Positions 143-26,362 of a stretch of 32,000 nt of DNA are shown piece by piece. Within the stretch, counting starts at the first letter, position 1, and every line of letters starts with the position of its first letter. The position numbers and the translations under genes were made by a program. The notes below the pieces were generated by a model. The model saw only the letters and a list, made by a program, of their open reading frames with translations. It made no database searches and was not told where the DNA came from. This DNA is from Candidatus Kuenenia stuttgartensis (GTDB taxonomy: Bacteria > Planctomycetota > Brocadiia > Brocadiales > Brocadiaceae): the NCBI RefSeq assembly GCF_900232105.1, contig NZ_LT934425.1, positions 690,001-722,000 on the forward strand. The letters run 5' to 3'.

Positions 143-184
143 AACAGTCTGGTTGTCCTACAAGGGCAGCTTATTGAAATACTT

Positions 185-218
185 GAGCTGTATGGTGGGA
201 AACTATCACGTACAGTTC
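185..218 (+). ncRNA. Group II intron domain V
   Basis: 34 nt, GAGCUGUAU-GGUGG-GAAA-CUAUC-AC-GUACAGUUC. It has a 9-bp lower helix with the AGC triad (186-188), a 5-bp upper helix, a GAAA tetraloop and the 2-nt AC bulge (208-209). Confidence 0.85.
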
Positions 219-221
219 TTA

Positions 222-256
222 GGAGGGTATCGGGCAGCAATGCCCGTGACCTATCC
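222..256 (+). ncRNA. Group II intron domain VI with candidate branch-point A253
   Basis: Inner helix CGGGCA/UGCCCG (231-236/241-246) closes a GCAA tetraloop. The basal helix 222-228/249-256 leaves A253 unpaired, a few nt from the inferred 3' splice site. Confidence 0.6.
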
Positions 257-273
257 GATTCCGTTGAAAGGAA

Positions 274-317
274 GTGAGGACGACCTCACCGCTCCAATAT
301 ACATAGGGGACGACCTC
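274..317 (+). promoter_or_regulatory. Guanidine-II (mini-ykkC) riboswitch
   Basis: Two hairpins each have an ACGA tetraloop closed by G-C pairs: GUGAGG-ACGA-CCUCAC (274-289) and GGGG-ACGA-CCUC (306-317). A 16-nt linker separates them. They lie directly upstream of a sugE/gdx gene, whose SD (GAAGG) is at 327-331. Confidence 0.8.
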
Positions 318-338
318 AGCATTTGTGAAGGCAAATAT

Positions 339-659
339 ATGGCGTGGATCATTCTTGTTATTGCGGGACTGTTTGAGACTGGCTGGGCGATCGGGTTGAA
401 GTACACCGAGGGGTTCACCCGATTGTGGCCTACGGTCTGGACAGTCTTGGCGATGATTATCAGTCTTTGGTTACTGGGCATTGCCTTGAAGTCGCTTCCG
501 ATTGGCACCGCTTACGCCATTTTGGTAGGAGTTGGAACCGTCGGAACCGTTGCGCTAGGCATCGTACTGTTTGGAGAATCTACGAATACTGCCCGGCTCA
601 TCAGCATTGCTCTGATTATTGCCGGTATCGTCGGGCTTAAGCTTGCGACACCGGCCTAA
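339..659 (+). CDS. sugE: SMR-family guanidinium exporter (SugE/Gdx)
   Basis: 106 aa counted from ATG339 ([26 protein letters not shown]...), with four TM segments and the membrane-embedded Glu in LFETGW. This is typical SugE. The tracked ORF start at 153 is an artefact. Confidence 0.9.
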
Positions 660-7733: not shown

Positions 7734-8693
7734 ATGACAATAATTGCCGGTATTGATGAAGCGGGATACGGACCAGTGCTTGGCCCCTTGGTAATCAGTG
7801 TTGTGGCACTTGACGTACCTGACGACAAAGCTAATTGTTCATTATGGGATTTGTTAAAAGATGCTATTTCTGATGGACTTCATGGCAGAAAACAACGGCT
7901 GGCGGTATGTGACAGCAAAAAACTGTACAGCACACGAAACGGCGTTAAACCGTTGGAAGATGCGGTTCTGTCATTTTTGGGAGTAAAGGGTGTTAAAATT
8001 GCCTCTTTTTATCAGTTATTGAATTCCTTATCATGTTTCGACAGGGAAGTAATAGATGGTTATCCCTGGTACACTCAAAAAGATTATGCATTGCCTTTCG
8101 CCACAAGCGAGGCTGTTTTTGTAAATTATATTGATTTGCTGCAGCACAGCCTTGCAAAACACGGTATCAGATTTTCTCATGCGGCAAGCTGTGTTGTTGC
8201 CGTTCGCGAGTTCAATGAACAAGTGCGGTCATGCGGGAACAAATCTACTGTTTTATTCAATAATAGTATCAAACATGTGGCAAAGTTGCTGAAAGAAAGC
8301 AATGGCAATGTAGAATTGCTCATCGATAAACAGGGCGGACGAAATACGTATTCACATTTACTGCAAAAATATTTTCCGGGAAAAGAGATAAAGATTTTGG
8401 GAGAAAGCAGTGAAGTTTCTTCATATGTAATAAGCGGGAAAAAACGGAGTATAAAAATATCTTTTGCGGAAAAAGGGGAAACCGTAAGCCTTGCGGCTGC
8501 CCTTGCTTCGATATTCAGCAAATACATCAGGGAATTGTTTATGGTTTTAGAAAATCGGTATTGGCTTCAATTGCTGCCGGGCCTGAAGCCAACGGCAGGA
8601 TATTATACGGACGCACAAAGGTATTTATCGCAAATAGAACAGGTGAGACGGGAAAAAGGTATTTGCGATGACATTCTTATAAGAATAAAATAG
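7734..8693 (+). CDS. Divergent RNase HII-like protein
   Basis: 319 aa. RNase HII motifs appear in the correct order: IAGIDEAGYGPVLGPLV, CDSKKL, LLIDKQGG, KGE..AAALASIFSKYIRE, AGYYTD. The segment between motifs 2 and 3 is much longer than in canonical RNase HII. Confidence 0.55.
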   Translation: MTIIAGIDEAGYGPVLGPLVISVVALDVPDDKANCSLWDLLKDAISDGLHGRKQRLAVCDSKKLYSTRNGVKPLEDAVLSFLGVKGVKIASFYQLLNSLSCFDREVIDGYPWYTQKDYALPFATSEAVFVNYIDLLQHSLAKHGIRFSHAASCVVAVREFNEQVRSCGNKSTVLFNNSIKHVAKLLKESNGNVELLIDKQGGRNTYSHLLQKYFPGKEIKILGESSEVSSYVISGKKRSIKISFAEKGETVSLAAALASIFSKYIRELFMVLENRYWLQLLPGLKPTAGYYTDAQRYLSQIEQVRREKGICDDILIRIK

Positions 8694-23918: not shown

Positions 23919-24029
23919 TAATTAACAACCTAAACAGTGTTGGTAAAGCTTCAAAACCGGTAAAAAGATATTGAAACCACAGATCCTCCGTATTACACAT
24001 ATTTTTAAATCAGGCATTTGGCAGTACCA

Positions 24030-24638
24030 TCAGGAGGCAGCAGCCAGCTTATCCAAAATACTCCGTAACATGCGAGGGTCGATGTACCTTATACCTAGCT
24101 TATCCGCCCATTTGACAATGCCGGTATCCGCAGTCATCATTATGCCGTCCATTTCTTTTGCAAGCAGGATTAAATCAACGTCTTCTTTGCTGTCAATAAT
24201 TCCCTCACGCAGCGCCATGCGATATTTTTTCCTGAGATTTGCTATCGCTTCAGGTTCGGTATCGGGCGAGGTTTCCCTGACGGCGGTTTCCGCCACCCTC
24301 AAGCCCTTATCGATCCTCAGCCGTACGTCTTCAATAAGTTCATAGAGCAAAAACGCGGGAACGGTCAACTCGTAACGTTTCGGGGATTTTTGCTGCAATA
24401 ACATTTGCAAATCAACTTGTATATCTTTTATCTCTACAAAGTTTAAAAGCTCCTCATAAATCGTCTGCGGCATATAAAAGGTAGGCCCTTTCAATTTGCT
24501 GATAATTTCAAGAAAAGAACGCAGGGCATCTGTAGGGTCATTGCCAAAGGTCTGATAAACTTCCGGATTGGTAAAGATACTGGTATCGATAATTATCTTT
24601 TCGTTGATGATTTGTTCATGTTTTATGTCTTTTTGCAT
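24030..24638 (-). CDS. HARP-type PIN_5 protein ('RNA ligase partner' / Aquifex protein-only RNase P homolog)
   Basis: 202 aa with [81 protein letters not shown] and [21 protein letters not shown]. From memory, these match the family signature blocks, including the PIN acidic residues. Confidence 0.75.
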
Positions 24639-25870
24639 ATAGTTCTTTCATTTTCAGTAAGCTGAAATATTTTTTTAAAAAGTTCCTCTTCCGCAGCGGA
24701 CATTTTTTTATCCCGTCTTTCCATAGCAAGCCTTGCCACACATAATGCCTTATCCCACTCGTAAACCCTTATCCCATTGACGGTACACCATGAAAACGAA
24801 GGTAGATATTTCGGAGGATAGAGATTGGTGACAATATTGCATGCAAAGCCAATGACACTCCCTGTCATAATCGTCGTATTTATGGCGGTTTTCGTATGAT
24901 CTCCCATCGCCATGCCAAGGGAATTGTGGTTTGTGTTTATGAGGGTATTTCCCATTTGAACTTTTATGAGGCCATAGGTATTAAGTAAATTACTGTTCGT
25001 TGTATCCGCCCCGATGTTGACCCATGAACCAAGATAGGAGTCGCCCAAGAATCCGTCATGTTGTTTGTTGGTAAAGCTGTGGAATATTGTGTTTACGATT
25101 TCTCCCCCTATTTTGCATACTTCTCCGATATTGGTGCCTCCCCGTAACCGCGAATTGGGCAGGATTACAGAATTATCTCCAATGTAAACCGGCCCCTCAA
25201 TGGAGGTATTAGGGGAAATGGTTACATTATTGCCAATATAAACCGGCCCATTCTCTGCGTCGAGTACACAGCAAGGTTTGATCCTGCTGCCCTTTCCAAT
25301 GTATATCTTATCTTTATTGATGAGATAAGTGCCTTCATACACGTTCCCCGCATTCCGTCCCTCCTTAACAAATAAGGAAAAGTCTTCCGCTATTTGATGT
25401 GCATTACGTTTTATAATGTCCCAATAATAACTGAATACCGGCGTATGAATATCAACCCTAGGCAAGGTGTTTTCCCATTTTTCATGATAGTTTTCTTCAA
25501 GAAATGTGTTATACGATATTTTTCCAGGGGAATTTTTTTTGAGACGAAGGTAAACAACCGTATCGCCTTGCATGCCAATTTCCTCAGGGCCTTCCAAAGA
25601 AACAGGACGCGAAAGAATCGCGCGGCCGTTTATAAAAAGACAGCTATCGTTCTGTTTCCGGGGGGCATTCACCTCCAGGGGATAACGTTCCTTTACAATA
25701 TCCGCGAGGGCATCCCTGCAGAAAAGGGTAATGGTAGCACCGGGATAAAGTCTAGATATCCTTTCCCATTGCGTATACAAACCACAACGCAACTCAAACG
25801 TTGCCCTGGTGTATACGAGGGGAGCAAGGCGTGAATAATTGGCGTCTTCGAAAATATAAATATGAGACAA
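24623..25870 (-). CDS. Putative sugar nucleotidyltransferase with left-handed beta-helix (NTP_transf_4 + hexapeptide repeats)
   Basis: TTG start preceded by AGAGGG. N-terminus [30 protein letters not shown] is typical of this family. The C-terminal half has many [LIV]G..[ST]..[LIV] hexapeptide repeats. The 3' end overlaps the HARP gene start by 16 nt. Confidence 0.7.
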
Positions 25871-25939
25871 ATTGAATTACCCTCTTTTCCATGGAAAGAC
25901 CTTAATTTCTTTGCATTTTCAGGCAAAATATTTAACAGT

Positions 25940-26115
25940 AAAATCCGAAAACACGAGATACGAAACAAATTCCAATAACAAAATGATTTGAAATTCTAAA
26001 CAAGTACGTCTTTCGTATCTTGCATTTCGTGCTTCATATTGTTGTATGTTTTGGATTTTATGCTTTGTTATTCGAATTTGTTTCGTATTTCGTACTTCGT
26101 ATTTCGTATTTCTTG
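25940..26115. repeat. CGAAAT/ATTTCG-rich palindromic repeat (family copy 3) with 25-bp inverted arms
   Basis: ATACGAAACAAATTCCAATAACAAA (25958-25982) matches the reverse complement of 26064-26088 at 24 of 25 positions, with an 81-bp spacer. It is flanked by ATTTCGTA tandem units (26081-26110). Confidence 0.7.
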
Positions 26116-26362
26116 CTTGGTTCAGGCTTTGCCAGTTTAGGATACTGAGAGGGTTAAACATTGTCAAGCCAATAACAGATATACTCAAAAGGTTTACAGT
26201 TTAATACAAAGCCATTTACTGGCCAAAAAACCCATTATCATTTTGCTATAATCGTTGACGGAATTTGTTAACTGTGCTAAAATTCCTTACAATGTATTCC
26301 TTTTCACATGAAGGGAGTATCGTCATATTATCACATAGCATCGTACAAATATCGTTATTTAA

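Follow-up and report, generated by a model that had tools for sequence, protein, structure and literature searches.

A HARP-family (RNA-free RNase P) gene paired with a GlmU-like gene in Candidatus Kuenenia stuttgartiensis

Introduction

RNA-free RNase P enzymes of the HARP family (homologs of Aquifex RNase P) are also catalogued as 'RNA ligase partner' proteins, a name that derives from the linkage of their genes to the gene of an RNA ligase, Rnl3 (Seshadri and Gopalan, 2025, mBio; PMC12153264). According to reviews, rnpA and rnpB are also kept by most of the HARP-bearing bacteria that lie outside the Aquificaceae, and by some Nitrospirae, and HARP-only bacteria have been reported solely in the Aquificae, a few Nitrospirae and some unclassified groups. 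Here, we describe a member of this family, the 202-residue product of a gene, harp, found at 24030..24638 on the minus strand of a 32,000-nucleotide stretch of the Candidatus Kuenenia stuttgartiensis genome (positions 690,001 to 722,000 of the forward strand of contig NZ_LT934425.1, assembly GCF_900232105.1; hereafter the window, to which all coordinates refer). The explanation that best accounts for the data, and one that we hold with high confidence, is that harp codes for a bona fide HARP, that it is the distal cistron of an operon with a GlmU-like gene, and that its product has an auxiliary role.

Of the homologs that have been assayed, the nearest is the HARP of Planctomycetes bacterium GWF2_40_8, PbHARP, which removes the 5' leaders of pre-tRNAs in vitro, if weakly, with ~6% cleavage in 20 min at 0.05 μM (PMC9051087). 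The D151A, D155A, D173A, R108A, R138A and R146A forms of PbHARP are inactive, and the R116A, R123A and R142A forms are strongly impaired (PMC9051087). Among HARPs from bacteria with both RNase P types, four of five were inactive on pre-tRNA (PMC9945441). The ligase is found in 89% of HARP-positive genomes and 80% of the bacterial pairs are co-localized, mostly in convergent orientation (PMC12153264); Table S1 of that study lists Brocadia, Scalindua and strain KSU-1 as 'Yes, Convergent', and K. stuttgartiensis as positive for both HARP and the ligase, with the genes not co-localized.

The Kuenenia HARP is an ordinary, already annotated member of a well-characterized family with a crystallized close relative. 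Database entries near-identical to it carry the names 'hypothetical protein KsCSTR_19720', 'RNA ligase partner protein' and 'RNA-free ribonuclease P' (UniRef, Q1Q2L1_KUEST), and the identical protein is encoded in several K. stuttgartiensis assemblies (e.g., GCA_900232175.1).

Results

As far as sequence can establish it, the 24030..24638 product is a bona fide HARP. It matched Pfam PF08745 (PIN_5) with 203.2 bits against a cut-off of 27 (E=4e-60; model positions 2-203 of 205), TIGR03875 (RNA_lig_partner) with 202.6 bits against a cut-off of 95.3, and the equivalog model NF003344 with 242.7 bits against a cut-off of 241; in the Pfam search the only match to another PIN family was to PIN_12, at 17.5 bits, under its 32-bit cut-off. 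A preliminary description of this DNA, made from the letters alone, had placed the protein in the PIN_5 'RNA ligase partner' or HARP family and had proposed a profile search; the search keeps the protein in PIN_5 rather than in another PIN subfamily, and structural matches and residue conservation (see below) bear out the assignment. The 202-residue open reading frame (ORF) and the five motif blocks named in that description were likewise all found in the 24030..24638 (minus strand) product, with DTSIFTNP at residues 18-25, FYMP at 54-57, and the further blocks at 100-117, 144-160 and 169-183.

Seven different PDB sequences, each entered under the name 'RNA-free ribonuclease P', matched the Kuenenia HARP with E values from 2e-80 to 7e-48. 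The best match was 7e8k/7e8o (E=2.2e-80), which aligned with residues 3-198 without gaps and with 67% identity; the alignment to the 7e8k chain also runs gap-free through the helices of the inserted helical domain (spike-helix or protruding-helix domain), the predicted counterpart of which is present in the Kuenenia protein. In an alignment of 13 HARPs, D18 (in the DTS motif), D149, D153 and D171, the predicted catalytic residues, are invariant, as are R106, R108, R114, R136, R140 and R144, while R121 is at least 90% conserved. At a constant offset of +2, D149/D153/D171 correspond to D151/D155/D173 of PbHARP, and R106/R108/R114/R121/R136/R140/R144 to R108/R110/R116/R123/R138/R142/R146; the seven Arg residues are predicted to serve in RNA binding or cleavage.

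The identity among HARPs follows taxonomy across the Brocadiales, in keeping with vertical inheritance, and harp is retained in all the Brocadiales sampled. The intact active site together with this retention show that the gene is under purifying selection.

The HARPs of Brocadia (L030-L042 in our survey, see below; P0088 and P0105) are longer, with 235-238 residues, and carry an insertion of ~35 residues within the spike-helix domain (columns 131-165 of the 13-HARP alignment). The insertion partly repeats the helix motif 'IDKGLK..E' and is absent from the HARPs of Kuenenia, Jettenia, Scalindua, Aquifex and Thermococcus.

The features of the locus are the following.

24030..24638, minus strand: HARP gene (harp, 202 residues), an ATG-to-stop ORF coding for a PIN_5 metallonuclease with a predicted inserted helical (spike-helix) domain.
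24623..25870, minus strand: GlmU-like gene (415 residues; PF13562, PF00132 and TIGR03991), upstream member of the probable operon.
24623..24638, minus strand: 16-nt overlap of the HARP and GlmU-like genes, ATGCAAAAAGACATAA, proposed site of translational coupling (from the ORF coordinates).
25871..26362, no strand: divergent intergenic region of 492 nt between the GlmU-like gene (minus) and a gene for a PMT_2-family glycosyltransferase (plus), probable promoter location.
23919..24029, no strand: spacer of 111 nt between the convergent stops of the HARP gene (minus) and ribBA (plus; PF00926 and PF00925), from the gene coordinates.

The two genes share 16 nt, the stop codon of the GlmU-like ORF being the TAA at 24623-24625, so that the ORF coordinates agree with the earlier placement of the harp ATG (24638) 16 nt within the 3'-end of the upstream gene. 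We considered that the overlap could be an artefact of gene calling, and rejected this possibility because the ATG is the sole canonical start upstream of D18 (no further in-frame ATG, GTG or TTG is found between 24638 and that codon) and because the start is conserved across species: the beginning of the Kuenenia gene (ATG-G/CAA-AAA) can be aligned with the harp starts of 34 other Brocadiaceae species. Moreover, both genes, with the identical overlap, are present in the public gene calls of six independent K. stuttgartiensis assemblies. A purine-rich tract, GAAAGAA, lies 4-10 nt ahead of the harp ATG; in the relatives the same position is occupied by AAGG or AAGGGG.

The protein encoded upstream has an N-terminal NTP_transf_4 domain (PF13562, E=9.5e-23) followed by a hexapeptide left-handed beta-helix (PF00132, E=3.9e-14), and matches TIGR03991 (alt_bact_glmU) over residues 3-402 of 415, that is, over its full length, with 367.7 bits against a cut-off of 225.3. 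The TIGR03991 model is itself graded as a 'hypothetical equivalog', and our literature search returned no papers on TIGR03991, PF13562 or 'alternative GlmU'. On the strength of these domains, the protein is predicted to be a UDP-N-acetylglucosamine (UDP-GlcNAc) diphosphorylase and glucosamine-1-phosphate acetyltransferase. Its gene had been described as coding for a hexapeptide-repeat sugar nucleotidyltransferase, which stands, and as being of an envelope-glycosylation type, which does not: the full-length match to TIGR03991 makes it a predicted UDP-GlcNAc-forming enzyme acting at a housekeeping step of envelope-precursor synthesis, and not a specialized glycosylation gene.

Since the flanking genes are divergent (PMT_2) on one side and convergent (ribBA) on the other, the simplest transcription unit consists of the GlmU-like gene and harp, which probably form a two-gene operon. 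Within the divergent region, a sigma-70-like match on the minus strand (26167..26139; TTGACA-17-TATCCT, 10 of 12 positions) is a candidate promoter. The other neighbors are all housekeeping genes: ribBA, carA, carB, the gene for the PMT_2-family glycosyltransferase, a Mur ligase gene and lexA.

A survey of HARP gene neighborhoods in related genomes, also proposed in the preliminary description, was run on 80 HARP loci from GTDB species genomes, found with the HARP alignment, in which homologs of the window genes were placed by tblastn and the neighbors were clustered. One neighbor was found conserved across phyla. A convergent gene for Rnl3 (~374 residues; RNA_ligase, PF09414, and Pab1020 Lig_C, PF18330) lies beside harp in 47 loci, out of 76 open to this analysis, spanning the Brocadiaceae, the Scalinduaceae, a metagenome-assembled genome (MAG) of the Deltaproteobacteria and the Thermococci; the gene that usually comes after it in the Brocadiales codes for a TrkA_N-DHH-DHHA1 protein. 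Most other Brocadiales have this convergent Rnl3 gene where Kuenenia has ribBA, and a tblastn search with Rnl3 gave no match in the window. The K. stuttgartiensis Rnl3 (KsCSTR_04950 / Q1Q093_KUEST, also SOH04248.1, in the cluster of P0177) is encoded on another contig of the same assembly, as also reflected in its locus tag (04950, as compared to 19720 for the HARP), still beside the DHH-family (TrkA_N-DHH-DHHA1) neighbor, and in K. hertensis the Rnl3 gene is likewise away from harp and beside its DHH-family neighbor. As the ligase gene is at another locus and harp is still with the GlmU-like gene, a rearrangement in the Kuenenia lineage must have cut between harp and the ligase gene. Rnl3 does not adjoin harp in ~10 of the 35 Brocadiaceae loci (L007-L009, L019, L020, L022, L024 and L027-L029); the genes found in its place differ among loci (ribBA, the neighbor clusters c30, c31 and c20, and others), which suggests several independent breaks at the harp/ligase junction within the Brocadiaceae.

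The conserved linkage raises the possibility that HARP and Rnl3 (Pab1020-type) act together in a pathway other than tRNA maturation, pre-tRNA cleavage being a side activity; trimming of the 5'-ends of small RNAs before their circularization, or removal of 5'-adenylated leaders, have been hypothesized (PMC12153264). The frequency of the linkage in our survey, the co-occurrence and co-localization figures given in the Introduction, and the retention of an Rnl3 gene by K. stuttgartiensis all speak for a joint function. Against it, for K. stuttgartiensis, stands the separation of harp from the Rnl3 gene; in general, no biochemical link between HARP and Rnl3 is known, and a ligase knockout in T. 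kodakarensis had no growth phenotype (PMC12153264). We regard such a joint pathway as possible for the Kuenenia enzyme, but on balance as unlikely.

In the Brocadiaceae, the conserved neighbor is the GlmU-like gene. In each of the 35 Brocadiaceae-type loci that contain upstream DNA, from Kuenenia, Jettenia, Brocadia, Wunengus, Loosdrechtia and unnamed genera, it directly precedes harp in the same orientation, and it was absent from the ~45 non-Brocadiaceae HARP loci (Scalinduaceae, Nitrospirota, WOR-3, the Deltaproteobacteria MAG and Thermococci), so that the pair is confined to the Brocadiaceae. In the Scalinduaceae the gene upstream of harp codes for a divergent PCMT methyltransferase, and elsewhere for a LapB-like TPR protein (Nitrospirota) or for a member of the 2-thiouracil desulfurase family (WOR-3). 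The spacing between the GlmU-like gene and harp ranges from -38 to +195 nt among the Brocadiaceae and is mostly +9 to +14 nt; the exact overlap of -16 nt recurs in three further species genomes of the Kuenenia clade (L007-L009), and in the remaining Brocadiaceae the two genes either overlap by 17-38 nt or are set apart by 9-195 nt, most often by 10-14 nt. In Brocadia sapporoensis, Brocadia sp. WS118 and an uncultured Brocadia (L033, L037 and L039), the GlmU-like gene is reduced to remnants (high-scoring segment pairs of 37-163 residues) next to an intact harp, and in a fourth locus (L038) it is split over two frames.

Because the pair is present in 35 of 35 Brocadiaceae loci and in none of the ~45 others, we take it to have been inherited once, and not to reflect a recurrent functional link. 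The adjacency is a Brocadiaceae-specific inherited gene order and is not evidence of a shared pathway; the synteny supports a conserved two-gene transcription unit and offers no comparative support for a shared pathway. The context that the preliminary description had called unexpected is therefore real, and indeed general in the family, but is best read as a lineage synteny, absent from the other HARP lineages sampled.

It could still be argued that the two genes form a true functional module, in which HARP expression would be tied stoichiometrically to UDP-GlcNAc and envelope-precursor synthesis, or HARP would act on RNAs linked to UDP-GlcNAc or envelope metabolism, such as RNAs with nucleotide-sugar-derived 5'-ends, or the alternative GlmU would itself modify RNA as an RNA-directed nucleotidyl- or acetyltransferase. 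The pair is tight and persistent, it outlasted the separation from Rnl3 in Kuenenia, and the biochemical function of a protein assigned to a hypothetical equivalog is a prediction. However, the pairing never recurs independently outside one family, and the GlmU-like gene decays in three Brocadia species in which harp persists. Unrelated housekeeping genes are, moreover, often combined in bacterial operons. We consider a functional module, in any of these forms, highly improbable.

One locus of the survey, L060 (CAXMPV010000059.1), is labelled as Thermodesulfobacteriota. It codes for a Scalindua-type HARP (68% identity) and has PCMT and aldo/keto-reductase-like neighbors (c5 and c6), as in Scalindua; it is probably a mis-binned Scalindua contig.

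The window, with a G+C content of ~41%, in keeping with K. stuttgartiensis, contains other elements outside the harp locus. A guanidine-II (mini-ykkC) riboswitch (RF01068, 45.4 bits; 272-318, plus strand) lies directly upstream of the coding region of an SMR/Gdx-type transporter (ORF 153-659, plus strand). PF00893 covers residues 63-155 of this ORF, and the real start of the transporter is therefore probably an ATG near 339; the riboswitch and the transporter are in the canonical arrangement of a guanidinium exporter. A match to domains V/VI of group II introns (RF00029, 57.5 bits) is found at 183-259 (plus strand), in the interval 17-259, with an ORF of 41 residues (17-142) ahead of it; no ORF for a full intron-encoded protein precedes the match within the window, and the element looks like either the 3'-end of an intron that crosses the window edge or a truncated remnant. 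Finally, in an ORF of 319 residues (7734-8693, plus strand), residues 5-29 match the RNase HII profile (PF01351), the remainder having no Pfam match.

Discussion

Whether bacterial HARPs replace the RNA-based RNase P, back it up or are unrelated to it had been posed as an open question in the preliminary description. For Kuenenia it is now largely answered by the literature, as most HARP-bearing bacteria other than the Aquificaceae keep rnpA and rnpB and as a later study (PMC2858038) made use of a K. stuttgartiensis RNase P RNA whose source is Butler et al. (2007); the genome paper of a related anammox bacterium, Scalindua profunda, also reports one RNase P RNA. Because an RNase P RNA is reported for K. 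stuttgartiensis, HARP is probably not the main enzyme of tRNA 5'-maturation in this organism. Together with the weak activity of PbHARP and the four inactive HARPs from bacteria with both RNase P types, this makes it most likely that the Kuenenia HARP either serves as a low-level, auxiliary RNase P or processes other RNAs; it is unlikely to replace the ribozyme.

The stronger claim, that Kuenenia relies mainly or wholly on HARP for its RNase P activity, the RNA-based enzyme having been replaced as in the Aquificaceae, could draw on the fully conserved active site, on the presence of the gene in all sampled Brocadiales and on its operon partner, whose predicted housekeeping function points to constitutive expression. 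It could also draw on an Rfam scan at gathering thresholds in which no RNase P RNA (RF00010) was found in the 32-kb window, the sole matches being the riboswitch and the intron fragment described above, although this is uninformative for a genome of ~4.4 Mb; a regular-expression search for the universal rnpB motifs CR-I and CR-V likewise gave no match in the window or in 88 fetched loci. Set against this are the RNase P RNAs of K. stuttgartiensis and S. profunda just mentioned, the restriction of HARP-only bacteria to the Aquificae, a few Nitrospirae and unclassified groups, and the weak activity of the closest assayed homolog, all of which make replacement of the ribozyme extremely unlikely. 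That harp might code for a VapC-like PIN toxin, acting within a toxin-antitoxin or defence module, is scarcely credible, even if HARPs fall in the VapC-like structural group of PIN domains and a toxin-antitoxin origin has been proposed for them in the literature, as no antitoxin-sized ORF is found in an operonic position (the upstream cistron codes for a 415-residue enzyme, while the remaining ORFs near harp, counted from 20 residues up, overlap real genes or sit in the convergent spacer), a PADLOC scan for defence and toxin-antitoxin families gave no matches, the gene is vertically inherited, unlike mobile toxin-antitoxin loci, and the next PIN match reaches only 17.5 bits.

In the interpretation that we favor, a HARP encoded by the distal cistron of the GlmU-like operon and having an auxiliary role, the operon would be transcribed from the divergent region at 25871-26362, and ribosomes would re-initiate at the 16-nt overlap to translate HARP. 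By analogy with the close solved homologs, the HARP monomer would consist of a PIN-like metallonuclease domain that carries a helical insertion, through which monomers would dimerize, and the dimers would assemble into tetramers and up to dodecamers. The Arg residues of one dimer may then bind the elbow (T-loop) of the tRNA, while the Asp cluster of a neighboring dimer (D149, D153 and D171, plus D18) would hold Mg2+ and cut off the 5' leader.

Several observations weigh against parts of this interpretation. The RNase P RNA of K. stuttgartiensis, on which the auxiliary role leans, comes from a second-hand citation, and a substrate other than tRNA is equally compatible with the data. Promoter-like matches in 25871..26362 are no more frequent than expected from shuffled sequences, and no terminator-like hairpin was found on the minus strand of the spacer between harp and ribBA, the fold z-score of which (+0.33) indicates no special structure. 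Co-transcription and translational coupling, both of them inferred, are plausible and fit the 16-nt overlap and the weak purine-rich tract.

Taken by itself, assigning this protein correctly to a known family of enzymes, in an anammox bacterium that has been well studied, adds little. Two points appear to be new, in that they are not stated in the papers on HARP that we consulted: harp is the distal gene of a conserved Brocadiaceae pair with an alternative-GlmU gene, and the HARP-Rnl3 pairing, for which a functional meaning has been proposed, is broken in about ten of 35 Brocadiaceae loci, including that of Kuenenia, in a family that has kept the GlmU-like pairing throughout, if only as gene remnants in three Brocadia loci. 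Since Kuenenia grows in enrichment cultures and has transcriptome and proteome data to draw on, it would be a reasonable mesophilic system in which to study a HARP that coexists with a ribonucleoprotein (RNP) RNase P and is unlinked to the ligase.

Of the systems described, the closest is PbHARP (PDB 7E8K, apo, and 7E8O, with pre-tRNA; Li et al., 2022; PMC9051087), from the same phylum as Kuenenia. Both proteins have a short basic N-terminal extension, and the Kuenenia HARP has the Asp triad as well as each of the six Arg residues whose function was tested in PbHARP. PbHARP, however, groups with the Scalinduaceae-type sequences, the loci of which have no GlmU-like neighbor, and the Kuenenia HARP, known here from its sequence, has five inserted residues (QIINE) ahead of the first beta-strand.

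Aq_880, the HARP of Aquifex aeolicus (PDB 7F3E, 8KD9 class), belongs to the same family and has the same catalytic residues (E ~1e-55; 47% identity to 8kd9). Aquifex lacks rnpA and rnpB, with Aq_880 as its sole, essential RNase P, whereas an RNase P RNA has been reported for Kuenenia. Kuenenia is a mesophile and Aquifex a hyperthermophile. In having a HARP beside an RNP RNase P, Kuenenia resembles the bacteria with two RNase P types, among them Thermodesulfatator indicus and Halorhodospira halophila (7OG5; E=6.6e-48), of whose HARPs, according to Gossringer et al. (2023; PMC9945441), only that of T. indicus shows robust activity, the other four being inactive on pre-tRNA. As in the genomes with the convergent HARP-Rnl3 pair (PMC12153264), both genes are present in K. 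stuttgartiensis; unlike in those genomes, they are not co-localized, ribBA being in the place of the ligase gene.

More distantly, the Kuenenia HARP shares with the VapC toxins and with the NYN/PIN-like domain of the eukaryotic PRORP enzymes a PIN-like metallonuclease fold with metal-binding acidic residues. Unlike VapC, it has no antitoxin partner, and PRORP, an independent invention, uses PPR repeats; the spike-helix insertion and the recognition of the substrate by an oligomer are specific to HARPs.

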